Assembly (NCBI GenBank): GCA_027013145.1
Contig: JALUXX010000056.1
Span: 88,975 to 152,974, forward strand
Direction: 5' to 3'
Source of the DNA: Gammaproteobacteria bacterium
Lineage (GTDB): Bacteria > Pseudomonadota > Gammaproteobacteria > 21-64-14
Length of the DNA stretch: 64,000 nt
Shown: positions 29,888 through 63,428 of the stretch, piece by piece
Layout of the letters: each line of letters begins with the position of its first letter
How positions within the stretch are numbered: position 1 is the first letter of the stretch
Notes under the pieces: generated by a model
Seen by the model: the letters and a program-made list of their open reading frames with translations, nothing else
Database searches by the model: none
Told to the model about the DNA's origin: nothing
Translations under genes and position numbers: made by a program

Positions 29888-33411
<3,524 letters not shown>

Positions 33412-33414
33412 ATC

Positions 33415-41500: not shown

Positions 41501-42049
41501 GTCGTATTCCGCAGCATCACGCTGCGGCCTCATTGAAGCAACTTGATGCCCTTCGCATCCTTGACGATTGCCATCGTATTCCGCAGCATCACGCTGCGGC
41601 CTCATTGAAGCGTGCCCTCCTTTCCTGGCGGCGGCGAACCACCGACGATGTATTCCGCAGCATCACGCTGCGGCCTCATTGAAGCCGGACGGGTCGGGCG
41701 GGTGCGCGAATCGGTTCAACATGTATTCCGCAGCATCACGCTGCGGCCTCATTGAAGCTTTTCCACGGTCAGTCCTCCTCGTAGTCGTCGACGTAGGTAT
41801 TCCGCAGCATCACGCTGCGGCCTCATTGAAGCGCAAGCTGAACGGTCACGGAATGCTGGCCTACGGCGGGTATTCCGCAGCATCACGCTGCGGCCTCATT
41901 GAAGCTGCTCGTCTCCTTACTGCTCTATGTCCGCCGCGCCAGGTATTCCGCAGCATCACGCTGCGGCCTCATTGAAGCCAGACCACGCGGTCCCCGTTCA
42001 CCGATACGGAGTTGTATTCCGCAGCATCACGCTGCGGCCTCATTGAAGC
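38591..42049 (+). CRISPR. CRISPR array, proximal part. ~48-49 copies of a 36-nt repeat GTATTCCGCAGCATCACGCTGCGGCCTCATTGAAGC.
   Basis: Exact 36-nt repeats with a period of ~71-73 bp and 35-37-nt unique spacers. The repeat has a CCGCAGC/GCTGCGG palindromic core and an ATTGAAGC 3' handle, resembling type I-U repeats that end in ATTGAAAC. Confidence 0.95.
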
Positions 42050-42076
42050 ATTCCAACTGGTGACGGTGTTTTTTTA

Positions 42077-43399
42077 GGTTCATCGCAGAAGTCCGGGGAG
42101 GTTGAGCTGGTGAAGCTGGCTCCGTACCGTTGCGCTGTGGCGACGACGGGGGGTGGGGCCATGTTTGACAAGGGTACTTTGAGCGAGCTGGGTGGCTGGA
42201 CGGGCTACCGGGTTGCGGACCTGGAGTACCGGCCCGGTGAAGGCTGGATGGGGCGAGGCAAGTTGCTGATCCGGTTGGAACCTCGCGGCCAGACGATGCG
42301 CTGCTCGCGCTGCGGGCAGGAGAGCCGGTCGGTGCATGACACCACGGTCAGGCGCATCCGCGACCTGCCCATTCTGGACTGGGATGTGGTGTTGATCGTC
42401 CCGCGCCGGCGGCTGTGGTGCGGGCACTGTGGTGGTCCCCGTCTGGAAGCGCTGGAGTGGCTGTCGGCGCACCGCCGGGTGACGCGGCGGCTGGAGGAAG
42501 CCATCGGGCGGCTGAGCCGGATGATGCCGTTGAAGCAGGTGGCGGCGTTCTATGGCGTGGGCTGGCACACGGTCAAGGCCATCGACAAGGCCCTGCTGGA
42601 GCAGGGGGTGCTGGAGCCCGACTGGCGCGGCATCGAGTACCTGGGCATGGATGAGTTTGCCCTGCACAAGGGGCATCGCTATGCCACGGTCATCGTGGAG
42701 CCCCTGCGTCGCCAGGTGCTGTGGGTGGGCGAAGGGCGCAGCCGCGAGGCCATCCGGCCCTTCTTCGAGGGTCTTGACGAGGCCACCCGCCGGCGTATCA
42801 AGGCGGTGGTGATGGACATGAACACCGCTTTCGATCTGGAGGTTCAGGCTCATTGTCCCCATGCGGAGGTCGTCTACGACCTGTTCCACGTGGTGGCCAA
42901 GTATGGCCGGGAGGTGATCGACCGGGTGCGGGTGGATGAGGCCAACCGGCTCAAGAAGGATCGCCCGGCCCGCAAGGTCATCAAGTCTGCCCGCTGGCTG
43001 CTGTTGCGCAACCGGGAGAACCTGGAGACGCCCGAGCAGGCGGTCCGCCTGGATGAGTTGCTGGCGGCGAATCAGGCCCTGATGACGGTCCATGTGCTCA
43101 AGGAGGACCTCAAGCGCCTGTGGCGCTATCGGCATGCCGGGTACGCCAAACGACTCTGGGAAGGCTGGTATCAGCGGGCCATGGAAAGCGCCATCGCGCC
43201 CCTGATGCAGTTTGCCCGGCGCCTGAGACCGTATCTCCAGGGCATCCTGGCCCATTGCCGCCACCCGCTGCACACCAGCGTGCTCGAGGGTATCAACAAC
43301 CGCATCAAGGTCATCAAACGCATGGCCTACGGCTTCCGGGATACCGACTACTTCTTCCTGAAAATCCGCGCCGCCTTCCCCGGAAATTTACGATGAACC
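42077..43399 (+). mobile_element. ISL3-family insertion sequence (1323 bp) inserted in a CRISPR spacer, with an 8-bp target site duplication TTTTTTTA
   Basis: Terminal IRs ggttcatcgcagaagtccgggga and tccccggaaatttacgatgaacc (imperfect, ~23 bp). Flanking direct repeat ttttttta at 42069-42076 and 43400-43407. Single transposase ORF. Confidence 0.8.
42110..43396 (+). CDS. ISL3-family transposase
   Basis: 428 aa. N-terminal zinc-finger region (RCSRCGQESRSVHDTTVRRIRDLPILDWDVVLIVPRRRLWCGHCGG) and a DDE core, typical of ISL3 transposases. GTG start. Confidence 0.85.
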   Translation: MKLAPYRCAVATTGGGAMFDKGTLSELGGWTGYRVADLEYRPGEGWMGRGKLLIRLEPRGQTMRCSRCGQESRSVHDTTVRRIRDLPILDWDVVLIVPRRRLWCGHCGGPRLEALEWLSAHRRVTRRLEEAIGRLSRMMPLKQVAAFYGVGWHTVKAIDKALLEQGVLEPDWRGIEYLGMDEFALHKGHRYATVIVEPLRRQVLWVGEGRSREAIRPFFEGLDEATRRRIKAVVMDMNTAFDLEVQAHCPHAEVVYDLFHVVAKYGREVIDRVRVDEANRLKKDRPARKVIKSARWLLLRNRENLETPEQAVRLDELLAANQALMTVHVLKEDLKRLWRYRHAGYAKRLWEGWYQRAMESAIAPLMQFARRLRPYLQGILAHCRHPLHTSVLEGINNRIKVIKRMAYGFRDTDYFFLKIRAAFPGNLR

Positions 43400-43416
43400 T
43401 TTTTTTAGACCCATTA

Positions 43417-43889
43417 GTATTCCGCAGCATCACGCTGCGGCCTCATTGAAGCCAACGGAGATCGCGGCGCGCAGCCCGTCGGTCGCGTCGGTATTCCGCA
43501 GCATCACGCTGCGGCCTCATTGAAGCTCATCGGGGTGGAACCTTTGAAAATCGGCCCCAGGAACGTATTCCGCAGCATCACGCTGCGGCCTCATTGAAGC
43601 AATTCCAGGAGCCCCGCCGCGCCCGTGATCCGCTCGGTATTCCGCAGCATCACGCTGCGGCCTCATTGAAGCGGCATCGCGTCGACCTCGGTCTGAACCT
43701 GACCGATGTATTCCGCAGCATCACGCTGCGGCCTCATTGAAGCCCGTTCAGTTTCAGGCGGAGGTTGGTCACCTGCGCAGGTATTCCGCAGCATCACGCT
43801 GCGGCCTCATTGAAGCATGTAGGGGGCGGCGGAGTTGAGATTCGTGCCCCATTGTATTCCGCAGCATCACGTTGCGGTCTCATTGAAGC
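43417..43889 (+). CRISPR. CRISPR array, distal part. 7 repeats with a degenerate terminal repeat.
   Basis: Same 36-nt repeat resumes 10 bp after the IS. The last repeat (43854-43889) has 2 mismatches (gtattccgcagcatcacgTtgcggTctcattgaagc), typical of a trailer-end repeat. Confidence 0.9.
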
Positions 43890-45287
43890 ACGCCTCACTT
43901 GACATGATGATGCGCAGGGCCACCGCGGCCTATGCTTTACGCTGTGGGCTTCTGCATTTTCCGGGCCAACGCCCAAACTGGCCGCAGGCGGAATCGGGCC
44001 CCCACCCTTCAGGGTGGGGGCGCCATAGGCTGGCCGGGCCCGAATCAACTGGCCGATTTTCACCATTTGACCTCCTTTCATCGCTACGTTGAACGCTCAA
44101 TCGAGTCGCCGGGAACCACCCCGGCTGCGCCCGGACAACCCGCGGCACCACCCGCAGTATCCGAACGCGCTCACCACCACTTGGACTACCACGCCCAGTC
44201 ACTTTTCGCACACGCCTGGTGCTTTCGACACCGGGGTACCACCCCCCCGGTCGGCTTGCGCCTCTCCCACGGCTTCGACTGAATCGCCGATGAGATTTAT
44301 CGTCTACTCACACCGCTCCCAGCCATAGAACCCGCCCCTTACCGGGGTCAGGATTCCTTAGGCCTTCCCGCGTTAGCTACGAATGTCGCGCGATTAGCCA
44401 GCGCCTCACACAGACGTCGGGGTGTCTTCCACCTCACCGGTCGGTTTTCAGGGGCCCGGGACTCCAAGGCAGCTCCCTTACCGACGTCTGTGCTTGCAGC
44501 TTCAGTCATCCACACGCTTTCGGGTGGAAACTGGCATCATCGAACTCACTCGACAGCGACCTCTGCGGCCGCCGTTACTGGCTTAAGCTATTCTGCGATC
44601 GTCCCAGGTTGCCCCGAGGCGTACCAGCCGTTCCAAGTTTCCTCTTACGGCCTCAAGAAGGTTTCCCTTCCCGCGTGCAGCCCACCAGTCGAGTCCCGGT
44701 TGTACCCTCTCGAGCACCCCCGGGCCGGGATTCTCACCCGTTCATCCGCAGCAGGGTTCCGCCGGTTTCCGTGACAAAGCACGTTCCCCCTTTGGCCCGT
44801 TTCCGCGTCGCCCAGTCCCGCCCCGTCGGGGCGGATTAGGTCGAACATGGCATTGCAGCCATGAGCGCCCGTTGCAGCCGCACCAGCCCAATTACGGGCA
44901 TGCAGCTACGGCGCGTGCACGACTTGGATTGGTGGTCCAAGTCTGGCCGGATGGTTCCGGCCGAGCCCCTTTCGGGGCAGTGACAGTGGTGTCCGGGGGC
45001 TGGTGAGACCCCCACGGAACTACGGTGGTGGACTCGACCCCCGGGCGAGTGTCCGTCGGTGCGACGTACACACTCACCGGTTTCCTATCCCGGTATAGGG
45101 AAAAAAATCGCTCTGGTGTCTCCCTCATAGGAGTCCCTAGTCGTTTGTCCTGAATCGACCCTTGGGAGATTCAAGGCAAACTGTCCGATCAATCGGTTAG
45201 CCTCGCTCCTTCCTGATAGTCGGCCGATGCCGGATTTCCGGACGGTTCGCTATACCCGGGTATCTACCCGAGAGGAGTGAACCGATC
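43890..45287. other. ORF-free, hairpin-dense 1.4-kb segment. Candidate structured ncRNA or degraded element. Identity unknown.
   Basis: No ORF longer than 120 aa with plausible composition on either strand. Many perfect GC hairpins with 3-4-nt loops (ccccaccc-ttca-gggtgggg, gcccc-tttc-ggggc, gccccg-tc-ggggc). On the minus strand, a strong SD+ATG (aaaggaggtcaaATG) sits at 44066-44083 but the reading frame runs into the CRISPR trailer. Confidence 0.3.
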
Positions 45288-45983
45288 ATGTACGATCCAC
45301 CCGTCCAGATTCACAAAACTGTACTGATGCAGCGCATTCTCGATGCCGTGAGCCGCGGCTATCTTCTGTACACTGCCGGGAAGGTTCCGGCGGACAAGGC
45401 CCAGCGTCTCGCCGGCAAGTTTGCGACCCGTTACGCGGTACATCGGAACGAGAACCAAAGGGCGTACGCCCGTCGCAAGGGGCGGGCCAACGCCAGGCTC
45501 TTTCTCTACGCTCCGCCCAACGACACCGATCTTCGCTGGTGGTTGTGCGTCACGTCCGGGGCAGGGGCCGTGCATGAACTGGAAAAGCTCGCCGATGCCC
45601 GGAATCGGCACACGAGGGTTTGGATCGAGGAGGACTATGAGTTGATTCAGCTGAGCCGGAAAAAGGGGCAGGGGACCGGAACGGTCTGGACATGGAGGAT
45701 GACCCACGGCTGCGACGAGCGGTGGCGCCTGCGGCTGCGCCATGCCTGCCGCACGCCGGGCACCTCGGAGATCCGCTTGGCGATCGGCTCGCTGTCCCGG
45801 ACCCCGGGCTTCTCAGGCATCCGCCGGCAGGTCGGGGACCTGATGGTCTTTGCGCGGGCCGAGTGGCGCCGGCGCCATGGCAATTTGGATCGGTTTCCGG
45901 GGCTGCTCAGGCTGCGGTATGTCGAGCGCCTTTCGAACACCGCCGTGCCGTTGACCGCGTGGAAGCGGCGAAGCAGTCGGTAA
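45288..45983 (+). CDS. Hypothetical protein (231 aa), no recognised family
   Basis: GAGGAG RBS lies 10 nt upstream of the ATG. Basic protein (many R/K) with motifs WWLCVTSGAG and WTWRMTHGCDERW. A competing antisense ORF (45264-45743) makes the coding call uncertain. Confidence 0.35.
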   Translation: MYDPPVQIHKTVLMQRILDAVSRGYLLYTAGKVPADKAQRLAGKFATRYAVHRNENQRAYARRKGRANARLFLYAPPNDTDLRWWLCVTSGAGAVHELEKLADARNRHTRVWIEEDYELIQLSRKKGQGTGTVWTWRMTHGCDERWRLRLRHACRTPGTSEIRLAIGSLSRTPGFSGIRRQVGDLMVFARAEWRRRHGNLDRFPGLLRLRYVERLSNTAVPLTAWKRRSSR

Positions 45984-46771
45984 ACTCACTTGTGGTCGAT
46001 GCCGCAGAGGACCGTCAAGTCGGCTACTGAAGGCAGACGGCTTGCAACGGCAAAAAGGCCTGAATTGAGGCCCAAACCCAGGGCATTCCGCGATAAGAAA
46101 AATGCTATTTTTCCGAAGTAGATACTTGGCGGCCCCCAAGGGATCGGCAGCGTGTTTCTCGAAGAAATAACTTCGAAATCTCGAGACGACGATAGGCGGC
46201 GTGATGCGTTTCTCGGACGCCCCAGACCGGAATCCTAGTGGTAGCGGCAAGAGTGCGCCGGAGCGGGGTGGGCGCGGTACGCCGCCGGACCCCAGATTGA
46301 GTCATTATTTTTACTACACAACTCGAGTGATGGATCTTTAGGGCCTAGGGCTTACGGCGGCACTTCCTTTGTGTGTGTCCGGTAGTGGCGTTATTCTGCT
46401 TCTGTGCACACCGAATTCGATTCTGGATTCGGGGGTTCCGCTTGGGGGGGCTCTATGGGATCCGGATCACGCTGCCGGCGTGACGAGTAGGTTGTGTACG
46501 AGCACCAGTACGGCGTTCGGTGGAATTGGCCCGATAAAGGAAGATCTTCCGTCGGGTCAAATGCTTCATTAGCGTACGGCGTTGGCGTCGAAAGCTGGCG
46601 CCAAATATAGCTAGGGTGTGGGGTTCCTGGAAGGAGTCCGTAGAGCAAGACGAAGAACTGAACAGGGACGCGCGCCCCGGATCGGCAAGCTGGCTGGTGC
46701 CGGGAAATATTCACACGTATCGCCTGCAGTCCCTGCTCATCCCTTGATAAGAAAAACAGGGGGGATGCGCG

Positions 46772-49700
46772 ATGTCGTCGGAGTCAATAGCAGCAAAGCG
46801 GTTCCTGCCGCGGGTGGTGAACGTCGTGCCTCGCCCGCGTTTGTTCGAGAAGTTGGATGGTATCCTCGCCGACTCAACGGTCGTGTGGGTGTCCGCTCCG
46901 GCTGGCTCTGGAAAGACCAGCTTGGTCGCGGGCTACTTGCAAGAGCGGGGCCTCTCCAGCCTGTGGTACCGCATCGAGGACGAGAATCCGGATTATAAAA
47001 GGTTCCAGGAACCGGACGGGACAAAAATGGGCGGGGAGGCGGCGGTAGCGACGCAGGTCGGGCTGGGCTGGGTTATTCGAACCCTCCAGCCGGGCACGAT
47101 TCTGGTGTTCGACAATTTGGCGTTTGCGCCCGACTCCACGCCCGTCGATTGGCTGCGGAAGGCTCCCTACGAACTTCCTCAGGGCAGCAAACTCATCGTA
47201 ATTTCCCGGGATAGCCCGCCCGCGGCGTTGGCTCGTCCGCGTATCAATGGGGCGCTGTTCGTTCTCGAGGGAGCCGAACTCCGCCTGACGGTCGAAGAGG
47301 CCCATGCCTTGGCCGATCTGCGCGCCGCGGAGGGCCGGCAGCCGCCGGCGGATACGATCCGCGCGATGTGGGAATGGGTGGACGGGTGGCCGGCGGGGTT
47401 CGCGGTGCTGTTCAACGGTCTCGGCGCCGGCGACTTATCAAGTCAGCCGCCGCCATGGCCCGACGAGCGCCTGCTGTTTGACTACCTGGCGGTCGAGGTT
47501 TTCGGGGCCCTGGCACACCACGAGCGGGATTTTCTGCGCTGCGTCTCCATCCTGCCCGTTGTGACGCCGGAGATCGCCGCGGCCGTTTGCGAAGTCCCGG
47601 ACACCGTGGCGATGCTGGAGTCCGTTTCTCGCCGGCTCGGGATATTCGTCCGTGAGATACCGCCGGGCGGGCGGAGTTATACCTTCTCCCCGATCTTCCG
47701 GGCATTCCTCGCCGAGCGGCAGCGGGAAGCGACGACCTCGGGCGAGCGGGGGGCGCTGGCACGCAACGCTGCCGATGCGCTTTCCAACGCCGGCAGGGTA
47801 GACGACGCCGTACACGTCCTTGCCACCCACGGCGAGTGGGCGGCGCTCGGCGCTCTGGTTTCCCGGGAAGCGCGCGGGCGCTTCGCCAAAGGCGACGGCG
47901 CATCCGTGCTGAGTTGGCTGAAACCGGTTCCGCCCGGTGTTTTGGAGAAGGATGCCGATCTCTGCTACTGCATGGGCGCGGCCAAGACCCCGCTCGATTT
48001 CGCCGAAAGTCTCAGATGGTTTGAACGCGCCTATACCCTGTACTCGGAACAGGGCGAGCGATTCGGGGCGCTGAACGCCTGGTCGGCGATCGTGGAGACG
48101 ATCTTCTTCCAGTGGGGAGACTTTTCGAAACTCAGGAGCTGGATCCATGTCGGGGAGAAGTTGTTGGCGGGCGGCTCGGACATACCGGACGGGCCCGTCG
48201 GACGGCGCGCGGTAGGCGCTATGTTCAACGCCCTGATGAACGGCCAGCCGGACCATCCGAAAATCGGCGCCTGGGCGCAGCGAATGCGCAGAATACTGCG
48301 CGAGATCGACGACGACAGCGAACGCCTCCTGATGGGGACGGGGCTTTTCATCTACTACACCAAGTGGCTGGGAGAGCACGGCCAGGCCGAGATCGTGCTG
48401 GAAATGCTCTGCCCGCCGCCGGAACGGAAGCCGCAGCTCACGCCTATGGCGCGGATCTTGCTGGCCATGGCGCAGTGCACCTACCACTGGAACCGATACG
48501 AGCTGGCAGCTGCGGATAGCGCGATCCAGGACGGGTTCGCGACGGCGGAGCGCTGCGGTATCCGGATCTGGGACTTTCTTTTGCACGCGCAGCCCATTTA
48601 CGCGGGCCTGAGCAGCGGCGACCTTCCTAAGGCCGACCGCTACCTCTCCCGCATGCGGGAACTGCTTCCGAGGAGGGCGCCGTTGGACCATGCGCACTAC
48701 CACTATCTCGCGGGCTGGGAAGCGATGCTGCGGGAGGACTCTCATCGGGCGCTGGAGCACGTCCAATACGCCCTGGAACTGGTTACTGAGGCGAGGGGGC
48801 CGATGCAACACGCCTTGACCTGTCTGGCCATGGCGCAGGTTCGCCATACGCTGAAAGAGGATCAGCACATCCCCGCGCTATTGGCAGATGCGCGGAAGAT
48901 GGCTGAGGGGGCCGGCAGCGCGTTGCTGAAATTCCTGATCGCCTACTCGGAAGCCTGGTTTGCTCTTGATGAGGGAAATGGCGCCGCCTGCCGGGCATCG
49001 CTTTCCCGCGCGTTCGCTTTGGCCAGAGAGCATGGATATGTCAACTTCACATGGTGCATTCCGACCGTTCTGGTACGTCTGTGTGTGGAGGCGTTGAAAG
49101 CTGAAGTCGAGACGCCGTTTGTTCAGCGCCTTATCCGTTCCCGAGGCTTAAGGTGTAGCGCGCCGCCGGTACAGCTGGAACACTGGCCATGGAGTATACG
49201 GGTCTACACCCTGGGCCGGTTCGGCGTGGTGAAAGACGACACACCGCTCCGTTTCTCGGGGAAGGCACAGCGCAGACCGTTGCAGATGCTGAAAGTACTG
49301 ATCGCTTTAGGCGGCCGTGAGGTACCCGAAAGTCGCTTGAGCGAGATTCTTTGGCCCGATGCGGAGGGCGACAAGGCTCACTCGGCGTTTACGACCACTT
49401 TGGCACGCCTGCGCAAGCTGGTCGGTGAGGAGTCGCTGTGTTTTCGGGACGGCCGATTGTCCGTTGACGCCCATCGCTGCTGGGTGGATGCGTGGGTTCT
49501 TCAGCGGCTGCTGGGAGAAGCGGAGACTGCTCCGAGCAGCGAAAGTGCACGGGCCCTGATGCACAAGGCACTGGATCTTTATCGCGGAGCGTTTTTGGGT
49601 TCCGAAGAAGATACCCCATGGGTTCGGGGCGCGCGTGAGCGCGTACGCAGGCGTCTCGTTCAGACGGTGAAGGTCGGTGCACGCTATTTTGGTTCGGGTC

Positions 49701-49774
49701 CAGCTCGCACTCAGACCGCGGCTATGCTCAGCCAATTTGTAGCCGTAGACCCCAGCCTGGAAGATATAATCTGA
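46772..49774 (+). CDS. MalT-like STAND NTPase regulator with C-terminal SARP module (OmpR-type winged helix + BTAD)
   Basis: N-terminus RFLPRVVNVVPRPRLFEKLDG...VVWVSAPAGSGKTSLVAGYL...SLWYRIEDENPD parallels the MalT pre-NBD, Walker A and WYSLDE region. Long helical/TPR-like middle. C-terminus YTLGRFGVVKDDTPLRFSGKAQRRPLQMLKVLIALGGREVPESRLSEILWPD...LARLRKLVG...YRGAFL matches the trans_reg_C + BTAD pattern of SARP regulators. Confidence 0.7.
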   Translation: MSSESIAAKRFLPRVVNVVPRPRLFEKLDGILADSTVVWVSAPAGSGKTSLVAGYLQERGLSSLWYRIEDENPDYKRFQEPDGTKMGGEAAVATQVGLGWVIRTLQPGTILVFDNLAFAPDSTPVDWLRKAPYELPQGSKLIVISRDSPPAALARPRINGALFVLEGAELRLTVEEAHALADLRAAEGRQPPADTIRAMWEWVDGWPAGFAVLFNGLGAGDLSSQPPPWPDERLLFDYLAVEVFGALAHHERDFLRCVSILPVVTPEIAAAVCEVPDTVAMLESVSRRLGIFVREIPPGGRSYTFSPIFRAFLAERQREATTSGERGALARNAADALSNAGRVDDAVHVLATHGEWAALGALVSREARGRFAKGDGASVLSWLKPVPPGVLEKDADLCYCMGAAKTPLDFAESLRWFERAYTLYSEQGERFGALNAWSAIVETIFFQWGDFSKLRSWIHVGEKLLAGGSDIPDGPVGRRAVGAMFNALMNGQPDHPKIGAWAQRMRRILREIDDDSERLLMGTGLFIYYTKWLGEHGQAEIVLEMLCPPPERKPQLTPMARILLAMAQCTYHWNRYELAAADSAIQDGFATAERCGIRIWDFLLHAQPIYAGLSSGDLPKADRYLSRMRELLPRRAPLDHAHYHYLAGWEAMLREDSHRALEHVQYALELVTEARGPMQHALTCLAMAQVRHTLKEDQHIPALLADARKMAEGAGSALLKFLIAYSEAWFALDEGNGAACRASLSRAFALAREHGYVNFTWCIPTVLVRLCVEALKAEVETPFVQRLIRSRGLRCSAPPVQLEHWPWSIRVYTLGRFGVVKDDTPLRFSGKAQRRPLQMLKVLIALGGREVPESRLSEILWPDAEGDKAHSAFTTTLARLRKLVGEESLCFRDGRLSVDAHRCWVDAWVLQRLLGEAETAPSSESARALMHKALDLYRGAFLGSEEDTPWVRGARERVRRRLVQTVKVGARYFGSGPARTQTAAMLSQFVAVDPSLEDII

Positions 49775-49918
49775 CCGCGGGTTGTCGAGTCACCGGTAGA
49801 ACTAGTAAGGTGTCATTCTCTAATCTATAGCATTCCATTCAGGCCGACTGAAGTCCGTTCGTTCCCGCACTCATGGTTGGTTCCTCAGGGGATCCTCACA
49901 GCGCGAGCCTGGATGCGC

Positions 49919-49955
49919 ATCTGTGACCTATCTGTGACACACCCGTCGGTATACT
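49919..49955 (+). promoter_or_regulatory. Two direct repeats with 11-bp phasing (ATCTGTGACCT ATCTGTGACAC) followed 9 bp later by TATACT. Candidate SARP-type activator site plus -10 element.
   Basis: Seen directly at 49919-49940 and 49950-49955, between the STAND-SARP regulator gene and the downstream low-GC operon. SARP proteins bind direct repeats with 11-bp periodicity overlapping the -35 region. Confidence 0.4.
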
Positions 49956-50298
49956 CGCATAGGCCTCCCGAAAAGGACTTGGCCATCCGGCGGAAATGGC
50001 AACTTTCAGCAGGCCGGATTCAATAAGCAGAAACGATCATTTTCACAAAAACGACCGAAAAGTTTTGGGCTGTGCAACTGAGATTGCTGATGGGGTACCA
50101 ATCTGTTCCAACCCTAAAGCTCGGCAACCGAGCATATCGAAGTACACTGGCGGCTTGTGTGGTGCGACGGCAAGTGCAGTCACGGGTTCGTCTGGAAGCC
50201 GCAACTCCGGCGAAGCGCCGCCGTGCTTTATACGAAGGGCTAACCTGGATTTCGATCCATAAAGGTGTCAGTGATGTTCCAAAATTACAAAGCCTCCT

Positions 50299-51123
50299 GT
50301 GGCAGAGGGCGGTAACATGCCGATCAAAATAAAAATTCCGTCGACGCTCCGACGGTATGCCGTATCCGTAAAGCAGATACCTGGAAGCTCCACTTCTAGA
50401 TTTATTTTTGTCATAGCTGTCTCCTTGCTCTCGTCCGCATGCAGTCCAATGACATTTACGCGCACTGTTATGGACTGGCAGCCCTACGACCACAATGAAA
50501 TGAGCCAAAGGAAGAGCGGCGTCGTAGCTCAGCTAAAGTGGATAACTCCAGGATCTCTTCCTTCCGACTTCTACTTCCGCGTCCAGGCCTGCAATAGGTA
50601 TGGGCAGCTGCTCGTTGATCAACTCGGCCACCCGGTATTTGAGAACGTCAGCCCAGCGAGCAATCAGCAGATGTGGGAGAAGATTGCGCTAACAAACAAC
50701 ACGCGGCATGTGATTCGCTTGAACCAAGTCGTCATCCGGCTGTTCGACCCCAATGGGAATCAAATCAGACCCCTGACCAGAAACGACGTTGCGTCCGCAT
50801 TTCTTCAGCGGCGCCCCTGTTCGTCGTCCAATATCGCGTTAGACGAGTTTCGCAGGATAAATATATTCAATAGAAATCTCGAAGTCGTGCCTGGAACGAC
50901 CTCCACTTTCTGGGTTGCATTCCCGACCGTAGCGGCAAATCTTCCAGGTGTTTGGAAATTTGCACTGTACGAAGTACCGGTCCGGGTTGATGCTACTGGC
51001 CGCGCGACTAAGACTACACAATTTGATATCCGGATGGTCGCCAAGGAGGTGGTGGAGACATATAGAGCGGCCAACATTTTCGCGCCGTCAGTTCTGGTCA
51101 GTGCGAAAACGAAAGCTCCGTAG
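50299..51123 (+). CDS. Hypothetical lipoprotein in a low-GC cargo segment
   Basis: Signal/lipobox FIFVIAVSLLSSAC. ~48% GC versus ~68% in the backbone. No recognisable domain. An internal Met (MPIKIKIP) is an alternative start. Confidence 0.5.
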   Translation: MAEGGNMPIKIKIPSTLRRYAVSVKQIPGSSTSRFIFVIAVSLLSSACSPMTFTRTVMDWQPYDHNEMSQRKSGVVAQLKWITPGSLPSDFYFRVQACNRYGQLLVDQLGHPVFENVSPASNQQMWEKIALTNNTRHVIRLNQVVIRLFDPNGNQIRPLTRNDVASAFLQRRPCSSSNIALDEFRRINIFNRNLEVVPGTTSTFWVAFPTVAANLPGVWKFALYEVPVRVDATGRATKTTQFDIRMVAKEVVETYRAANIFAPSVLVSAKTKAP

Positions 51124-51890
51124 TGTCTGGCGCCCAACCGCTCGGCGGCTGGTGTCGCATCGAGTCACATTTTGCCACCTTGGCAATCTTTCGGAGTTCA
51201 TTCGGAACCGAAAAATGACCGTGGAATAAAGCTGGAAAGATTCGGCGCACCGACCGTTTCTAAAAGGGATGGCGGATATTTGTATACCAGAATGTCCGTA
51301 CGATAGCGACAATCCGCGGAGGATATGAACCCGGCCGACAGGCGACAGCCTGGACGCTTGCCCCGGTACTTGGTGAGAGGGTGCGGCGAGTCCCGGATGG
51401 AAGCAATGGGGGATTCTGGGCTGAAAATCAACGGGTGCGTTGAATTCCACGTGTTTAAGGGATGGGAGGATCCGCCTGATTGCCGGGGCACTTGCAAGTG
51501 CTGGCGCAGGCTTCAATAAAGCAGGTTAACGGCACCTCGGATTTTCTGAGCGCGTGGCTAAGCGGTGCGGGCCAAGGAGTGCGTTGTGGGATGGGGGAGG
51601 TAAGACAGGCCCGGCCTATCGTGTGGGCTGATCGAAGGCTATGGGCCGCGTACAGTGGACCGGCGGCGCCTCCCGTTGGGTCCCGGGTTTTTTGTGCTGT
51701 GGGCGGTGCTCTGTACAGTTGGGCAATCGGGCTGGTCAAATTGCTGAGTGCCGGTTACGTAGGCCGGCGTGTCTGTCTGCATGGATAGATTTGGGGGCGG
51801 TGGTTGATGAGTGGAATTTAGACGTTAGAAGGGGCAATGGCCCAGCTGTGAGTGTCTGAGATGGTGTTTCGCTGGCAGGGGCGGGGGGCA

Positions 51891-54821
51891 ATGAAGAAGA
51901 TGCTAAAGCTTCTGAGAGCGGCATTGATGCTGGTCTTAACGATGCTTGTCGCCGCGTGTCAGAGCGGCGGAGGGTCGGGGGGGGCGGCGCCACCTGAGAC
52001 ATCGGCGACTTCGGTGATCTTGCGAATCGCGCCTTTCGGGAGCGGTAGCATCGTTAGCTTGCCCGACGGGATCGACTGTGGAACAGCCTGTTCGAGGTCT
52101 TTTCCGACCGGCACGAAGGTGGTGCTTACGGCCAATGCATCGCCTGGGGAGAAACTGGTCAACTGGGCGGGGTGCGATAGCAGCAGCGGAAATCAGTGCA
52201 CTGTAACTTTGGATCATCAGCGCTTGATCTTACCGACCTTTGCCTCATCGGCGCCGACCGAGATTCAGCCGTCAGTTGTAGTACTCAATGCCGCGACTAT
52301 CGGCGCAATCGTTAAACAAGTTGGGAGTATCTATTATTTTGCGCCTGGCACCACAGCCGCCTCGGATTTGCGGACGGGGAATGTAATTGTCAGGCACGGA
52401 ATGACTTCCTCCGGGGTGGATATAGGAATCCTTGCTCGAGTTGTTACTGTTACTAATGAACCCGATGGGACGATTGCGGTTTCGACGACTCCGGCTAGAC
52501 TAACGGATGTAATACAATCAGGCACCGTCTGGTACAGTGCGCCTCTTGTTCCGGCGCAACTCACGGCGGCAAAGGCGTTGGTGGCGGGAGTATCGGTAAC
52601 AGGCGCATCGGTGGCTTGTTCAGCGCACTCGACAAGCCAATTCGCCGTACCACTTAATCATGTTTTGGTCGGTAGCGGGGGAAATCAGATCACGATAAGC
52701 GGCTGCTTGAAGTTGTCCTTTGCGCCAGATTTCGCTCTTGATATTAGTCCGTTCTCTGGTGTCAGCGAATTCCGGGCAGCTCTTATCACGACGAGCAGCC
52801 AATCTCTAAATCTTGATGCCGCAACAGGGATCAGCCTTAACGCGCAAACGGCTATCGCGCGGTATTCTTTTAGTGCTATTCCTGTCTATCCGCCCTTTGT
52901 CTGGATTACCCCTACGGTAACCGTGTATCTGGGTACTCAGGTGCAAGCGGATGGCTCTGTGCATCTTGGCGTCATGGTACAGGAAGACGCGAAAGGGGGG
53001 GTGGAATATCGGCAGGGTATCGGTTGGGGGGCTATCGGTGAATTTACCCCGACCTTCACGGGACCGAGCTCTCAGTTCGCAGGCCAGGCGACTGCCACTG
53101 GCTACGTAGAACCGAACTTCTCAATGCCAGTCGACGGTCTGGCGGGCCCCTTTGTCGCATTAAAGGGCTACCTCCAAGGGGATTCTTGGGCCGCAACGGG
53201 AAGAAGTGACGCCGTAGGATGGGAATTATATGGAGGAGCTGCCGGGTACGCCGGGATGGCAGCCGAGCCTCTGGGGTGGAACCTGGGGGAGGTCCAGCTC
53301 CAACTCTTCGACGACCGGACTCTATTGGCGAGCAGCGTGGGTACGGTGGCGGATACGGCGCCGCCCTCGGTGCCCGAAAACGTTGTCGCCACGGCAGCTT
53401 CGCCCAGCGAGATCGACCTTTCCTGGGGTGCAGCTACGGACGATACTGCGGTCAAGAACTATAAGGTCTACGTGGGCGCCAATTTATGGAAGACCATTAG
53501 CGGTACATACGCTGCGGACAAAGGTATTCCGCCAGGAACGGAAGTCTGCTATTCGGTGGAGGCAGTGGACGAGGGTGGAAACGTTTCGGCGCCGTCAAAG
53601 ACGGTGTGTGCGACCACGCCGCTGGCGAACGATAGCACACCGCCCACCGCTACGACGGCCCCTAACATTACTGCTGTAACCTCCAATTCGGTGACGCTAT
53701 CCTGGAAGGCGGCGACTGACAATGTCGGTGTTGCGGGCTATACGGTCGATCGTAACGGGTCGCCGATCGCAACAGTGTCGACCACAGGATATACGGATAG
53801 CTCGCTTACGAAAGGTGCGAAGTACTGTTATACAGTCCAGGCATTCGACGCTGCGGGAAATGTTTCGGCGGCGAGTGGGCAAGCTTGTGCGACCACGGCA
53901 AGCGGTGGTGTGAGGACAGTGGACCTGTATGTCGTAAACGGAGCGCCCGTGGGCATCACCGGATCCGTATCGGTGATCGATCCTGCAATCGGAAAAATCG
54001 TCGGAAGTATTCCTGTGGGTACGGGCTCGGGTGACATTGCGGTGAGCTCGGACGGGAGCCGGGCCTATGTCACGAATTCTGTCGATAATACGGTCTCGGT
54101 CATCGATACCGCCACTGACCATGTAGTCGCGGTCGTACCTGTAGGCAACAATCCTTCGGGTGTTGCGGTGAGTCCCGATGGTGGGCAGGTCTACGTCATA
54201 AATACTCTACTATATCCTTCGGTGTCCGTGATTAGCGCCGCTAGCGATAAAGTGGTCGCGACGTGGCCTATGAGTGTTCCGGCCGCGGGTATTGCGGTGA
54301 GCCCAGATGGCAGTCACGTTTACATCACGGCTTTTGCTTCTCCCGCTACGATGTACGTGGTCAACGCCGCGAACGGTCAAGTCGTCGCGGGGGTCGACTT
54401 AAGTGCTGGCGCTGGGCCTGTTACAGTTAGTCCGGACGGAAGCAAGGTCTATATTCCGAACGATTCTGTGTTGTATGGAGCGCTATCGGTAATTGACGCG
54501 GCAACCGATAAGGTGGTTGGGACCGTGCCCGTAGGCGCCGGGCCCAATGCTGTTGCGGTGAGCCCAGACGGCAGCCGGGCCTACGTCGTGAACGGAGTGA
54601 GTGGTACGGTATCGGTGATTGACACGGCAACCGATAAGGTGGTTGGGACCGTGCCCGTAGGCGCCGGGCCCAATGCTGTTGCGGTAAGCCCGGACGGCAG
54701 CCAAGCCTACGTGGCGAATAGCCTGGAAGGTACAGTGTCTGTAATCGATACCGCGAGTGACGAAGTGGTCGTGACGTTGTCGGGGCTCTATAATCCATCA
54801 GGCATTGCGGTCGGGCCATGA
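51891..54821 (+). CDS. Large surface lipoprotein with Ig-like/fibronectin type III domains and a C-terminal YVTN-family beta-propeller
   Basis: Signal and lipobox MKKMLKLLRAALMLVLTMLVAAC. Fn3-like segments (PSVPENVVATAASPSEIDLSWGAATDDTAVKNYKVY; TAPNITAVTSNSVTLSWKAATDNVGVAGYTVDRNG). At least 7 tandem ~42-aa repeats of the form VSPDGS.AYV.N.....VSVIDTATDKVV.TVPVG..P..VAVSPDG form the YVTN beta-propeller. Confidence 0.7.
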   Translation: MKKMLKLLRAALMLVLTMLVAACQSGGGSGGAAPPETSATSVILRIAPFGSGSIVSLPDGIDCGTACSRSFPTGTKVVLTANASPGEKLVNWAGCDSSSGNQCTVTLDHQRLILPTFASSAPTEIQPSVVVLNAATIGAIVKQVGSIYYFAPGTTAASDLRTGNVIVRHGMTSSGVDIGILARVVTVTNEPDGTIAVSTTPARLTDVIQSGTVWYSAPLVPAQLTAAKALVAGVSVTGASVACSAHSTSQFAVPLNHVLVGSGGNQITISGCLKLSFAPDFALDISPFSGVSEFRAALITTSSQSLNLDAATGISLNAQTAIARYSFSAIPVYPPFVWITPTVTVYLGTQVQADGSVHLGVMVQEDAKGGVEYRQGIGWGAIGEFTPTFTGPSSQFAGQATATGYVEPNFSMPVDGLAGPFVALKGYLQGDSWAATGRSDAVGWELYGGAAGYAGMAAEPLGWNLGEVQLQLFDDRTLLASSVGTVADTAPPSVPENVVATAASPSEIDLSWGAATDDTAVKNYKVYVGANLWKTISGTYAADKGIPPGTEVCYSVEAVDEGGNVSAPSKTVCATTPLANDSTPPTATTAPNITAVTSNSVTLSWKAATDNVGVAGYTVDRNGSPIATVSTTGYTDSSLTKGAKYCYTVQAFDAAGNVSAASGQACATTASGGVRTVDLYVVNGAPVGITGSVSVIDPAIGKIVGSIPVGTGSGDIAVSSDGSRAYVTNSVDNTVSVIDTATDHVVAVVPVGNNPSGVAVSPDGGQVYVINTLLYPSVSVISAASDKVVATWPMSVPAAGIAVSPDGSHVYITAFASPATMYVVNAANGQVVAGVDLSAGAGPVTVSPDGSKVYIPNDSVLYGALSVIDAATDKVVGTVPVGAGPNAVAVSPDGSRAYVVNGVSGTVSVIDTATDKVVGTVPVGAGPNAVAVSPDGSQAYVANSLEGTVSVIDTASDEVVVTLSGLYNPSGIAVGP

Positions 54822-55342
54822 GCGCATGGTTTGCAGTAGCTGCGGCCGAAAAGGGCGGGGGTATCAACAGCCACTCTCGATAGGCGTATTGCTGGAGCTT
54901 AGTGATTTCTACGGGCGATATCATTGGCGTGCGGCTGGTAGATCATACTCCTCAGGCCAATGGGCTGTTGGGACGTGCAACGCGGCGGGCTATGCGGGGT
55001 TTTGCCATCTTTCTTATGGGGGGATAACGGAGGCGGTCCAGGAGTTGATCGCTCGATGGCGCGAAGGGATGTGGACGGGAATCGGATGCTGGTGCTAAGC
55101 AGCGCCGGTGGATTTGCCTAGAGCGTAGCCGTGGCGATCGTGTTTTCGTTGGAGGATTAATGGAAATTATCGAAAATTTCATGTGCGGAGACGGTCCTCG
55201 ATGATGCCTCTACCGGGTTCGGGTCCGGGAGGAAGATCTTTGACCTCGATTAGGCTCTGACCATAGTCAGACCATCGGTGATGATGTGGTCGCGACGTCC
55301 CGCGACCGCGGTTGAGCGGGAGTGTATGGCAAAACGAAAAGT

Positions 55343-56347
55343 TCAGGGCTTGGCAAGTTGGTCGAGCTTGTCTATGAGATGCTGGGTGCTTGGATGGGCA
55401 TAGCGCCGAAAGACCCGCATGTCCTTATGCCCACTGACCGCCATCGCCTCGATCACGTTCCAGCCGGCTTCCACCAGGCTGGATACGCGTTCGTGGCGCA
55501 GATCATGCAGTCGAAAATCCTCGAGTCTCGCCCGCATCCGCAGCCGCTTCCAGGCCAATTTCACCGCATTGACGGTGAGCCCCTCGAAGACGTATGTCCC
55601 GCTGCCCGTGAGTCTGCGCAGCCCGCGCAGCGCGGCGGTCGCGCGTCGTGAGAGCGGCACTTGCCGGCCCTGGCCGTTCTTCGTCTGTGCGTCTCGCAGG
55701 CCGATGACACGCTGCTTCAAGTTGACCTGTCGCCACTCGATCCCGAGCAGCTCGCCGCGGCGCATGCCGCTCTCGCGCGCCAGGGTCACGAAGGTCCGGA
55801 ACAGCGGGTTCCGGCACCGGCGAAGCGCGGCGTCCAGGCGTCGGCGCTCGTCGGGATCCAGGCGACGGGTGCGGTTGGGCGAATTCTTGGGGCGATCGAC
55901 ATCCGCCATCGGGTCGTGGGGGAGGAGATGGCGTTTGCGTGCCCGACGCAGGGCGCGGGAGAGGATGGAAAGCTCGCGGTTGACCGTGGAGCCCGAGACC
56001 GTGGTCAGCCGCGACTCGATGTAGTCTTCGATGACGCCGGCGTTGATCTCGGCCAATGACAGCGTGGCGAGGGGGTGGCGCATCATCGCCAGTACGCGTT
56101 TGTTTTCGATGGCGGCCCCGCGGTGCAATGGGACGACCTTGCGCCGGTAGTCCTCCAGGACATCGCTGAGTGTCGTCTGTTGGGCGGCCAGGGTTTCGGG
56201 AAGGGCGCCGAAGTCGATATCCCGTTCTTTGGCGCGGACCCAGGTCTCGGCCTCGCGGCGGGTGTCGAAGGTGGCGGTGAGTGTCGCATACCCGCGCCGG
56301 CGGATTCGGGCTTGATAGGCGCGACCGCGCCGCGTGATGGATGCCAT
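55343..56347 (-). CDS. int: Tyrosine-type phage integrase / site-specific recombinase
   Basis: MASITRRGRAYQARIRRRGY... N-terminal arm-binding/SAM-like domain. C-terminal catalytic region with RHDLRHERVSS...VSGHKDMRVFRRYAH (R..HxxR..Y). GAGGAG RBS. Start trimmed to the ATG at 56347. Confidence 0.85.
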   Translation of the reverse strand: MASITRRGRAYQARIRRRGYATLTATFDTRREAETWVRAKERDIDFGALPETLAAQQTTLSDVLEDYRRKVVPLHRGAAIENKRVLAMMRHPLATLSLAEINAGVIEDYIESRLTTVSGSTVNRELSILSRALRRARKRHLLPHDPMADVDRPKNSPNRTRRLDPDERRRLDAALRRCRNPLFRTFVTLARESGMRRGELLGIEWRQVNLKQRVIGLRDAQTKNGQGRQVPLSRRATAALRGLRRLTGSGTYVFEGLTVNAVKLAWKRLRMRARLEDFRLHDLRHERVSSLVEAGWNVIEAMAVSGHKDMRVFRRYAHPSTQHLIDKLDQLAKP

Positions 56348-56495
56348 ATCGCTTCTCCTCGTCTGTGGGGACAAGGGGTGTAGCGAATGGCGAGGCGGAT
56401 TCGACCGGCGGTCGGGCGAATTTGACCGAATTGGAGCAAATTGGAGCAAATTGCCCCGACGTGCCCGGCCCGGATGCCGTAAGTCATTGAAAACA

Positions 56496-56570
56496 TGGTG
56501 GGCGATGCTGGGATCGAACCAGCGACCCCTGCCGTGTGAAGGCAGTGCTCTCCCGCTGAGCTAATCGCCC
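56496..56570 (-). tRNA. tRNA-Val (anticodon CAC), the island integration target
   Basis: Reverse complement GGGCGATTAGCTCAGCGGGAGAGCACTGCCTTCACACGGCAGGGGTCGCTGGTTCGATCCCAGCATCGCCCACCA. Anticodon loop TTCACAC. Acceptor stem GGGCGAT/ATCGCCC. Its 3' 46 nt are duplicated at 23825-23870. Confidence 0.85.
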
Positions 56571-56723
56571 GTAGGTGCCGGATGCGGGGGACGGCCGGGC
56601 GGCCCCCGCGGCAGATTCTAGGGGGCGGCCCGCCCGGGGTCAATTTCCGCGGCGGTGCCGGCTTTGCTACAATCGCGCGCCTGCCGGCCGTTGCCGGCCC
56701 GGCCGCGCCGATCGCCGATTTCC

Positions 56724-58172
56724 ATGCCTCCAGAGCCGACATCCCGCGCCGTCCCGCCGCGGACGCGTTTCGCCCCCAGCCCGACCGGATACCTGCACAT
56801 CGGGGGGGTGCGCACGGCGTTGTTTTCCTGGCTGCACGCCCGCCGGCACGGCGGCGTATTCGTGCTGCGCATCGAGGACACGGATCGCGAGCGCTCCACC
56901 GAGGCCTCGGTGAACGTGATCCTGGAGGGGATGCGCTGGCTCGGGCTCGACTGGGACGAAGGCCCCTTTTTCCAGACGCAGCGCTTCGATCGCTACGGTG
57001 AGGTGTTGCAGCGGCTGCTCGACGCGGGCCATGCCTATCGCTGCTATTGTTCGCGCGAGCGCCTCGAGGCGCTTCGCGCCGAGCAGATGGCGCGCAAGGA
57101 AAAACCCCGTTACGACGGGCGCTGCCGCACGCGTACCGGCCCGCCCCCGGAGGGGGTGGCCCCCGTCGTGCGCTTCCGCAATCCCGTCGACGGCACGGTC
57201 GTGGTCGAGGACCTGATCCGCGGGCGGGTCGCGTTTCAGAACCGGGAGCTGGACGATCTCATCCTCGCGCGTGCCGACGGCACCCCGACCTATAACTTCA
57301 CCGTCGTCGTCGATGATCTCGATATGGCGATCACGCACGTCATCCGCGGCGACGATCATCTCAACAATACGCCGCGGCAGATCAATATTATGCGCGCGCT
57401 GGGGGCCGAGCCGCCGGCGTATGCGCACGTGCCGATGATCCTCGGGCCCGACGGCAAGCGCCTGTCGAAGCGCCACGGCGCGGTGAGCGTGCTCCAGTAC
57501 CGCGACGAGGGCTACCTGCCCGAGGCGGTTCTCAACTACCTGGTCCGGCTCGGCTGGTCCCATGGTGACCAGGAGGTCTTCTCGCGCGAGGAGATGATCG
57601 AGCTGTTCGATGTCCGGGAAGTCAACAAGGCGCCTTCGGCGGTCAATCCGGACAAGCTGCTCTGGCTCAACCAGCACTACATCAAGACGCTGGATCCGGC
57701 GCTCGTCGCGCGCCACCTCGCCTGGCACCTGGAGCGGCTCGGACTCGATCCGACCGGCGGGCCGGCGCTGGAGGAGGTGGTCGCGGCGCAGCGGGAGCGG
57801 GCCAAGACCCTGGTGGAGATGGCGGCCAACAGCGCCTTCCTGTTCCGCGAGCCGGAGGGGTTCGACGAGAAGGCCGCGGCCAAACACCTGGGCGCGGCGC
57901 AGCGCCCGATCCTGGAGGTGCTGCGCGCGAAACTCGCGGATCTGGAGCCGTGGACGCGGGAGGCGGCGCACGCCGTCGTGACCGGCGTCGCCGAGGACGC
58001 GGGAGCCAAGCTCGGCAAGGTCGCACAGCCCCTGCGCGTGGCCCTGACCGGCGGCACGGTATCGCCCCCGATCGACGTTACGATATACTTGCTCGGGCGC
58101 GCGCGCACCCTTGCCCGGCTCGACCGTGCGCTGGCCCATGCGGCCGGTGCCGGCGCGGCGGAGCCCGGCTAA
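56724..58172 (+). CDS. gltX: Glutamate--tRNA ligase
   Basis: [32 protein letters not shown] (HIGH motif), ...KLSKR (KMSKS-like) and YRCYC zinc-binding motif. Start trimmed to the ATG at 56724. Divergent from a tRNA-Val gene, as in E. coli gltX-valU. Confidence 0.9.
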
Positions 58173-58226
58173 GTCCTTGACATGGAAAGAGTCCTGTCGT
58201 AGAGTTCGCGGCTCGTTTGCCGCAAC

Positions 58227-58302
<76 letters not shown>

Positions 58303-58346
58303 GGTTCCCCAGGGCCGGTCGCCCGGCCCTGGTAAGTCGCCGCAAC

Positions 58347-58422
58347 CCGTCCCCATCGTCTAGCTGGCCCAGGACACCGCCCTTTCACGGCGGCAACAGG
58401 GGTTCGAATCCCCTTGGGGACG
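58347..58422 (+). tRNA. tRNA-Glu (anticodon TTC)
   Basis: GTCCCCATCGTCTAGCTGGCCCAGGACACCGCCCTTTCACGGCGGCAACAGGGGTTCGAATCCCCTTGGGGACGCCA. Near-identical to E. coli tRNA-Glu. Confidence 0.9.
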
Positions 58423-58543
58423 CCATCCCTCCGGTCGTTATAGAGGTCGTACACCGCCCGGGTCGGGCGCGGCGCCGGGACCGCAGGGGTCCGCGCCGCG
58501 GCGGCGGATTCGACGGGGCGGAACCATCGACCGGCGGCCTCCG

Positions 58544-61895: not shown

Positions 61896-61924
61896 AAACA
61901 ACCACCTACCCCTCCGTACCCCTC

Positions 61925-62113: not shown

Positions 62114-62128
62114 AGGGGGTAAGTTGTT

Positions 62129-63403: not shown

Positions 63404-63428
63404 CGGGCGGTCTCCAAGGACGGAATCG

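Follow-up and report, generated by a model that had tools for sequence, protein, structure and literature searches.

A candidate operator of 11-bp-phased direct repeats beside the gene of a MalT-type regulator with a predicted C-terminal SARP module

Introduction

SARP transcription factors activate promoters through contacts with sigma region 4, the beta flap and the alpha subunit's C-terminal domain (alpha-CTD) in RNA polymerase, and their sites follow a rule in which direct repeats lie 11 (or 22) bp apart with the 3' repeat 8 bp from the -10 element (PMC10936776). In AfsR of Streptomyces coelicolor, a 'large' SARP, the SARP module binds as a side-by-side dimer to a 22-bp box (-40 to -19) over the -35 region, each protomer contacting the first 8 bp of its 11-bp repeat, in a mode named 'sigma adaptation'; the contacts to sigma region 4 and the alpha-CTD involve R240, E246, L247 and L263 in helices 6-7 of the BTAD domain, and the AfsR SARP domain on its own activates transcription in vitro (PMC10936776). 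Here we analysed a 64,000-nucleotide stretch of contig JALUXX010000056.1 from a gammaproteobacterium (hereafter the window), in which two 11-bp direct repeat units and a -10-like hexamer follow the gene of a 1000-residue regulator. An initial annotation of the window had read these repeats as the operator of a SARP-type regulator.

The locus resembles several described systems and departs from each of them. Like AfsR, the regulator joins a SARP module to a STAND-type nucleotide-binding oligomerisation domain (NOD) and a helical-repeat sensor. As in the afs box, the putative site measures 22 bp and consists of two 11-bp direct repeats over a poor -35 region, of which the 5' part would be read (8-9 bp in the afs box, positions 1-9 here) and the end left free. 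In AfsR, however, the SARP module is N-terminal whereas here it is C-terminal, and the NTPase is an NB-ARC domain whereas here it is closest to MalT. The repeat sequence found here (ATCTGTGAC) is also unrelated, the BTAD domain is shortened in the clade of the window protein, the hosts are Gram-negative or other non-actinobacterial organisms, and the predicted targets are exported proteins, not antibiotic pathways. The small SARPs (ActII-ORF4, DnrI, RedD) share the 11-bp direct repeats beside the -10 element and the regulator gene beside its targets (PMC10936776), but they consist of the SARP module alone and their heptamers end 8 bp from the -10 element, whereas here a 1000-aa sensor is present and the conserved core ends 11 bp away. 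EmbR of Mycobacterium tuberculosis likewise couples a SARP module to a different signalling domain, and its structure is similar to our model of the window module, but its SARP module is N-terminal and under the control of an FHA domain and phosphorylation, with no STAND ATPase. MalT of Escherichia coli, finally, corresponds to the regulator over the N-terminal two-thirds, with a P-loop NOD, a MalT-type winged-helix domain and a helical sensor region. It binds short asymmetric boxes arranged as direct repeats near the -35 region and oligomerises on binding its ligand plus ATP. MalT ends in a LuxR/GerE helix-turn-helix, whereas the regulator family described here has a SARP module instead.

SARP modules, 11-bp-phased repeats and STAND-gated activators are already known. 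What appears to be new is the reversed MalT-SARP architecture as a very large non-actinomycete family, its operator and promoter layout, and a correspondence between recognition helix and operator. A literature search of incomplete coverage turned up neither a STAND protein that carries its SARP module at the C-terminus, nor this operator and promoter layout, nor the correspondence between helix and operator.

Results

We consider it very likely, from sequence comparison, that the two repeats are the operator of the regulator encoded upstream and that together with TATACT they form an activator-dependent promoter lacking a -35 element. Positions 49915-49960 read gcgc ATCTGTGACCT ATCTGTGACAC acccgtcgg TATACT cgcat, and both units and the hexamer lie exactly where the initial annotation had put them (Table 1). 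The repeats begin 145 nt past the regulator stop codon (49774) and, as had been claimed, stand between the regulator gene and the next one; for the start of the latter, the position 50299 given earlier holds as the GTG of an open reading frame (ORF), whereas gene callers choose the ATG at 50317. The core form of the element can be written ATCTGTGACnnATCTGTGAC-N11-TA. A simple sigma-70 scan returned no complete -35/-10 promoter on the plus strand here, in keeping with a -10 box that has no -35 partner. Within the repeats, stretches reading GTGAC(A/C) stand 10 and 21 bp away from the -10 hexamer, at the wrong distance for a -35 element.

How much of this could arise by chance? Within the window the exact 9-mer ATCTGTGAC is confined to the two sites, and its one-mismatch copies are at shuffle level (11 observed vs 8.9 expected). 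For runs of at least nine matches at period 11 the chance expectation in 64 kb is 0.54, with a probability of 0.43 of at least one, and periods other than 11 yield similar chance counts; for the 543-nt intergenic region alone the probability of such a run is 0.0016. A functionless tandem duplication would thus not be surprising somewhere in a window of this size. The window by itself backs the repeat at a weak-to-moderate level, and its significance rests on conservation. Against a chance duplication stand the conservation, fixed spacing and strand bias across many divergent loci described below, which effectively refute it, and we give this explanation practically no weight.

Other candidate sites nearby were set aside. 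A second 11-bp-phased pair, GGTTCCTCA/GGATCCTCA at 49879-49898, lies 21 nt upstream of the operator and is unconserved in orthologous loci, so it is probably a chance pair; a TCACAG at 49894 (inverted relative to CTGTGA) is equally unconserved there and was treated as chance. An autoregulatory site upstream of the regulator gene was also considered, but the window holds no second copy of the element. In related loci, upstream matches are weak and at chance level, and divergent upstream sites occur only in L016 and L027.

Contigs encoding 50-58% identical proteins were taken as close relatives, and these provided four loci with usable downstream DNA (the window, L003/L004, L005 and L007). The element is present in all four. 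In an alignment of their intergenic regions almost all invariant columns fall in the repeats and in the G-TAT..T of the -10 box. The genes that follow vary by locus, from two lipoproteins in the window to a 1,152-aa beta-propeller-repeat lipoprotein in L003 and a TraT-like lipoprotein in L007. We also considered a conserved partner gene upstream of the regulator and rejected it, the 231-aa ORF at 45288-45983 being unrelated to the gene upstream of the L006 orthologue.

Distant relatives were collected by a metagenome scan with the C-terminal module alignment, which gave 80 loci of 38-58% module identity, fetched by protein alone, 76 of them with at least 120 nt of downstream sequence. Under a strict rule (at least 10 of 12 matches to ATCTGT across both units, and at least two of three identical bases at positions 7-9) 70 matches were counted in 504,638 nt on both strands, against a mean of 6.2 and a maximum of 13 in shuffled sequence. 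Forty-eight of these matches lie on the strand of the regulator between -40 and +400 nt of its stop codon, and by eye the element can be seen in about 55 loci. In 40 of the 48 sites TA begins exactly 9 nt past the 22-mer, no other offset being found in more than 7; TAnnnT stands at +9 in 23 sites, and TGn is present just ahead in many. The initial annotation had named the absence of the repeat from homologous loci that retain the regulator as grounds for giving up its prediction. The repeat is instead kept in every close locus with usable downstream DNA and, by the strict rule, in 46 of the 76 distant ones.

A second scan, with the 20-mer ATCNGTGACCTATYTGTGAC against one genome per species in GTDB, matched 21 stretches, which were retrieved as 8-kb tiles; by our own estimate about 9 chance matches to this pattern are to be expected in the 596 Gb searched. 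A relative of the regulator (26-34% identity) was present in eight tiles. The site lies downstream of it on the same strand in six (L012, L013, L018, L020, L021, L023) and upstream and divergent in two (L016, L027), and two further matches were the L003 locus again.

Further copies of the motif were seen in other settings. L012 (5618-5637, minus) and L016 (1427-1446, plus) are adjacent tiles of contig JAFGNJ010000031.1, where one regulator gene lies between two outward-facing sites and each operator/promoter copy precedes a gene for a secreted protein, so that the regulon would reach both sides of the regulator gene. On the IMG/VR contig L112 (14010-14051, minus) a perfect ATCTGTGACCTATCTGTGACCT-N9-TATGGT stands about 40 nt upstream of a two-partner secretion (TPS) operon that encodes TpsB (ShlB/FhaC type) and then a TPS-domain exoprotein, with no regulator within the fetched 14 kb. 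In L059 the repeat at about 1854-1898 (minus) runs to three or more consecutive units rather than two, ATCTGTAACCT ATCTGTAAGCG ATCTGTAAGTA, and a weaker fourth precedes them upstream; this array lies on the strand opposite the regulator and about 2.6 kb downstream of it. In two gut metagenome-assembled genomes (MAGs) of Bacteroidota, from Bacteroidaceae and Alistipes (L014 1240-1259 and L029 333-352), the 22-mer is followed by GTTTTC.ATTTT; the two loci are homologous, their upstream sequences being similar too, and no regulator was seen in either.

The protein encoded upstream of the element is predicted, from sequence profiles and a structure model, to be a MalT-type STAND ATPase in which a C-terminal SARP module replaces the LuxR-type helix-turn-helix. 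This assignment follows from NCBIfam, structure, profile and AlphaFold2 matches. In its N-terminal part the protein matches the NCBIfam MalT model NF003420 (residues 134-397, E 6.8e-33, below the equivalog cut-off) and the MalT structure 8BOB (E 5.6e-11). The motif G45-x-G47-K48 forms the Walker A box, and G45, G47, K48 and D114 (Walker A and B residues) are invariant in the family. PF25873 (WHD_MalT) is precomputed for the regulator, and its relatives carry PF25873 and BTAD, sometimes with Trans_reg_C. The P-loop NOD and the MalT-type winged-helix domain of MalT/LAL proteins are thus present and their C-terminal LuxR/GerE helix-turn-helix is not: PF00196 is absent from the window protein and from full-length relatives, being restricted to far more distant matches (E above 1e-21) that lack BTAD.

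At the C-terminal end the sole Pfam match of the window regulator in our own search is BTAD (residues 905-998, E 7.5e-7, above the curated cut-off). It spans positions 1-97 of a model 146 positions long, as the protein goes no further, and distant relatives have the full domain. In NCBIfam, residues 809-964 align with AfsR residues 29-183. A profile built from the last ~205-278 residues of ten family members (A2, the C-terminal module alignment) aligns over its whole length with the AfsR SARP domain (8HVR, 8K60, 8JKE; E 2.4e-15; AfsR residues 29-264) and also matches EmbR (2FEZ, E 1.8e-8). BTAD is found in all ten members and Trans_reg_C in nine (best E 8.5e-6), the window protein alone giving a Trans_reg_C E-value of 0.083. 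An AlphaFold2 model of the C-terminal 205 residues reached a pLDDT of 86 and a pTM of 0.84, and in Foldseek its only significant structural neighbours were AfsR (8K60/8HVR) and EmbR. The module and its family thus have the OmpR-type winged helix of SARPs; they do not have the SARP module at the N-terminus, as the STAND ATPase and helical region come first. In the clade of the window protein (P0001-P0007) BTAD ends about 50 residues early, near AfsR residue 219. The term SARP-type used by the initial annotation is therefore apt for the C-terminal module, but the protein as a whole is a MalT-type STAND ATPase with a shortened BTAD and no classical SARP.

The family is large, with 3,626 representatives of 50%-identity clusters at E <= 1e-30; among the best 150 of these nearly all are full-length proteins of about 1,050-1,100 aa. 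No relatives of the C-terminal module were found in IMG/VR, and none of the PADLOC models of anti-phage defence match the regulator or its neighbours.

We then compared the operator with the helix predicted to read it. The recognition helix (AHSAFTTTLARLRK, residues 869-882) aligns with AfsR residues 82-95 and keeps the AfsR base-contacting residues T88 and R92 (alignment; contacts from PMC10936776). The two units were compared with each other in 36 non-redundant sites picked on their ATCTGT parts only. Positions 7, 8 and 9 are the same in both units in 92%, 89% and 75% of sites, vs 47%, 65% and 34% expected from base frequencies, and positions 10-11 behave as a free spacer. Such co-variation of the two units would be as expected for two copies of one protein, and it runs parallel to AfsR, whose protomers each touch the first 8 bp of an 11-bp repeat (PMC10936776).

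For the comparison of helix and operator we used 44 loci, the 36-site set plus eight more (seven from the GTDB motif scan, and L007). Their operators fall into a dozen classes at positions 7-9 (GAC, AAC, AAG, GAG, TAC, ACT, CCC and others). Helix position 10 is S, A, N or Q in all 14 regulators with GAC/GAC operators and H, Y, R or K in the 30 others. At helix position 6, E, D or Q accompanies a G at operator position 9 in 10 of 11 loci and is seen in 0 of the other 33; both counts ignore shared ancestry. In the window protein helix positions 10 and 6 are A878 and T874. It makes chemical sense for an acidic residue to face a G·C pair, since it can accept a hydrogen bond from cytosine N4. The co-variation of helix and operator ties the site to the linked regulator rather than to another protein, and it supports the earlier assignment of the site to its neighbouring regulator.

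This result also bears on a rival reading in which some other protein recognises the repeats, such as a response regulator of the OmpR/PhoB type whose gene lies elsewhere. OmpR-family proteins do bind tandem repeats with 10-11 bp phasing, and copies of the motif occur without a regulator in the 8-kb tile (L010, L011, L017, L019, L112). Such unlinked copies are, however, what extra members of a regulon are expected to look like, in dozens of loci spread over several phyla the site consistently comes right behind the regulator gene, and operator positions 7-9 follow the residues of the regulator's own recognition helix. We therefore regard a different binder as very unlikely.

The arrangement of box and promoter is close to the SARP rule without matching it. 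The two units are spaced at exactly 11 bp, conserved and co-varying. The 8-bp distance to the -10 element is not found, as the 22-mer ends 9 bp and the conserved 9-bp core 11 bp before the -10 hexamer throughout the family. Of the SARP geometry, which the initial annotation had called exact, the 11-bp phasing and the placement over the -35 region are retained, whereas the box lies about 3 bp farther from the -10 hexamer than the AfsR box. This offset, 2-3 bp by our own arithmetic from the published coordinates (PMC10936776), assumes a -10 element at -12 to -7, and the register used there may follow another definition.

The predicted targets are exported proteins. Homologues of the first, a 268-aa lipoprotein-like protein, usually carry the peptidoglycan-binding domain PF01471. 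A fixed pairing of regulator and target was considered and rejected, since homologues of this protein occur without the regulator; the targets are rather variable cargo. In the family loci examined the genes after the sites lie on the same strand and mostly encode signal peptides or lipoboxes, with products that include fn3/CBM96 proteins, SLH plus InlB-type repeat proteins, a metallo-beta-lactamase fold, a beta-helix, a PEP-CTERM protein and TpsB/TpsA. The leader ahead of the first window target gave no Rfam match and a folding z-score of +0.72, which is nothing unusual. In three loci a recurring small protein begins 18-76 nt past the -10 box (L047 2309-2839, L071 6507-6983, L092 6737-7012). 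Its N-terminus reads ...(I/V)(V/Y)R(I/V)YR.E...P..(I/L)(T/V)G(V/I)VE..., and it has no signal peptide and no convincing Pfam match.

The regulator, operator and targets are cargo of a 32.7-kb integrative island (window 23825-56540). A second, exact copy of the 46-nt 3' part (56495-56540) of a tRNA-Val(cac) gene (56496-56570, minus) lies at 23825-23870. This duplication marks the island ends, and the site is 6.5 kb away from the end beside the tRNA and 26 kb away from the far end. GC content is ~0.50-0.65 over 40000-55500 and ~0.64-0.74 in the flank past the tRNA (56500-64000). GltX, encoded beside the island, shares 85% identity with its counterpart in 'bacterium BMS3Bbin12' and 73-75% with the proteins of Inmirania and Thiohalobacter, from which we take the host to be an uncultured gammaproteobacterium.

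With an integrase gene on the island, the repeats could in principle be arm-type sites for this tyrosine integrase or for an excisionase. In four alphaproteobacterial MAGs the same 22-mer, ATCTGTGACCTATYTGTGACCT, indeed lies near tRNA-Arg or integrase genes with no regulator in the tile. In L009 and L015 it stands 63-73 nt from the 3' end of tRNA-Arg(acg), and in L024 and L025 directly upstream of an integrase gene; about 115 nt upstream in L024 lies a 3' fragment of tRNA-Arg, and L025 has a third, inverted copy, AGGTCACAGAT. No -10 box stands at +9 of these four copies, which may be arm-type sites of an unrelated island family. Given the chance matches estimated for the scan, a few unrelated tandem-repeat elements are unsurprising. 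At the window locus the distance of the site from both island ends speaks against an arm-type role, and the island has other candidate arm repeats near both ends. No tyrosine-integrase gene was called in the regulator-linked loci with neighbours listed. An arm-type role for the repeats is in our view highly improbable, and an operator of the linked regulator remains the preferred assignment.

The other candidate arm repeat is a 19-mer, TGGAGCAAATTGGAGCAAA, itself a 10-bp-phased direct repeat, with copies at 24041-24059 and 56432-56450. One copy lies about 170 nt in from an island end and the other, at the opposite end, 45 nt away from the tRNA; both may be arm-type sites to which the integrase binds. 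The island also holds a cas operon and a CRISPR array (38591-43889) of 55 repeats GTATTCCGCAGCATCACGCTGCGGCCTCATTGAAGC spaced at 71-75 nt. An ISL3-family insertion sequence, with its transposase at 42110-43396, interrupts the array between repeats 42014 and 43417 (positions of the repeats). Two large proteins of the cas operon have no Pfam match. The combination of cas genes resembles type I-G (formerly I-U).

Table 1. Positions of the element, the regulator, its predicted targets and other features (window coordinates unless a locus is named)
Feature	Position	Strand	Remarks
Upstream direct repeat unit ATCTGTGACCT	49919..49929	+	predicted upstream-protomer site; conserved in L003, L005, L007 and family-wide
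Downstream direct repeat unit ATCTGTGACAC	49930..49940	+	predicted downstream-protomer site; positions 1-9 conserved/co-varying, 10-11 free
-10 hexamer TATACT	49950..49955	+	9 nt past the 22-mer; no -35 hexamer at 16-18 nt
Predicted transcription start	49961..49963	+	placed from the -10 position; leader ~355 nt
Regulator gene, 1000 aa	46772..49774	+	N-terminal MalT-like STAND NTPase, helical/TPR-like middle, predicted C-terminal SARP module
SARP-module coding region	49184..49771	+	OmpR-type winged helix ~805-905, then shortened BTAD 905-1000
Predicted recognition helix	49376..49417	+	residues 869-882
First predicted target, 268-aa lipoprotein-like protein	50317..51123	+	signal peptide ...VSLLSSAC
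Second predicted target, lipoprotein of about 980 aa (…LVAAC)	51852..54821	+	fn3 domain, YVTN/lactonase-type beta-propeller repeats
Element, window			ATCTGTGACCT ATCTGTGACAC -N9- TATACT
Element, L003/L004			ATCTGTGACCT ATCTGTGACCC -N9- TATGGT
Element, L005			ATCAGTGACCT ATCTGTGACCT -N9- TATATT
Element, L007			ATCCGTGACCT ATTTGTGACCA -N9- TATAGT
Tyrosine integrase gene	55343-56449	-	abuts tRNA-Val
cas operon	25186-38093		same island
WYL-domain regulator	25186-26187		cas operon
Cas3 helicase, C-terminal HD domain	26982-29384		cas operon
Cas_GSU0053	32296-33411		cas operon
Cas4-Cas1 fusion	36384-38093		cas operon
Alphaproteobacterial 22-mer copy, L009	803-822		
Alphaproteobacterial 22-mer copy, L015	37-56		
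Alphaproteobacterial 22-mer copy, L024	7461-7480		
Alphaproteobacterial 22-mer copy, L025	614-633		

Discussion

Our results suggest a mechanism in which the regulator would act as a signal-sensing MalT-type STAND ATPase with the SARP module (winged helix plus BTAD) as its output domain, presumably gated by a ligand through the N-terminal MalT-like ATPase as in MalT and AfsR. Once active, two SARP modules would bind next to each other on the same face of the double helix, each occupying one repeat and using its recognition helix to read positions 1-9 of that unit. The modules would, by analogy with AfsR, take the place of the contact between sigma region 4 and a -35 element and recruit RNA polymerase to TATACT; transcription would start near 49962 and run into the two lipoprotein genes. 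Physical binding, activation as the direction of control, the start site and the sensed signal are what we infer here.

Several observations weigh against such an activator-dependent promoter. The BTAD domain of the window clade is without the AfsR-type helices that contact sigma region 4 and the alpha-CTD, and activation in this clade may therefore be different or weaker. The box stands farther from the -10 element than in AfsR/afsS (centre-to-centre ~23 vs ~20 bp), and a leader of some 355 nt without a recognised element precedes the first gene. No clear site was found in 20 to 30 of the 76 related loci, the co-variation statistics take no account of shared ancestry, although the pattern spans a dozen operator classes, and the alphaproteobacterial copies described above lie beside tRNA or integrase genes.

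The first three of these points could be taken to mean that the regulator binds the repeats without activating in the manner of a SARP, through repression, a roadblock to read-through from the regulator gene, or activation by other contacts with the polymerase. The promoter layout is nonetheless conserved in the truncated-BTAD clade (window, L003, L005, L007), where, as in the family at large, the -10 box stands at a fixed 9 nt with no -35 box. It is this fixed distance that argues for an activator-dependent promoter, since a repressor site would need no such distance. We consider binding without SARP-style activation unlikely and favour the activator-dependent promoter.

A broader proposal, which we put forward only tentatively and which may well not hold in full, is that the regulator belongs to an undescribed activator family (at least 3,600 clusters at 50% identity, in Proteobacteria, Nitrospirota, Deferribacteres and others) in which each gene travels with a cassette (ATCTGTnnn-nn)x2-N9-TAnnnT and two or three helix residues set the operator classes. 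If this were true the family would offer a readable natural recognition code for SARP-type winged helices, as well as potentially orthogonal activator/promoter pairs, often on mobile islands, that drive variable cargo, most of it secreted or at the surface.

Almost all study of SARP activators has been in actinomycetes, where they act as switches of antibiotic production. The family described here would be a very large uncharacterised relative in Gram-negative bacteria and other phyla, in which the SARP module serves as the output of a MalT-like, ATP-dependent sensor. Our analysis yields a consensus operator, a fixed promoter architecture and a candidate rule relating amino acids to bases. For genome annotation these would allow a direct prediction of the genes under control, mostly exported proteins of unknown function, and should the specificity classes prove truly orthogonal, engineered gene circuits would gain useful parts from them.

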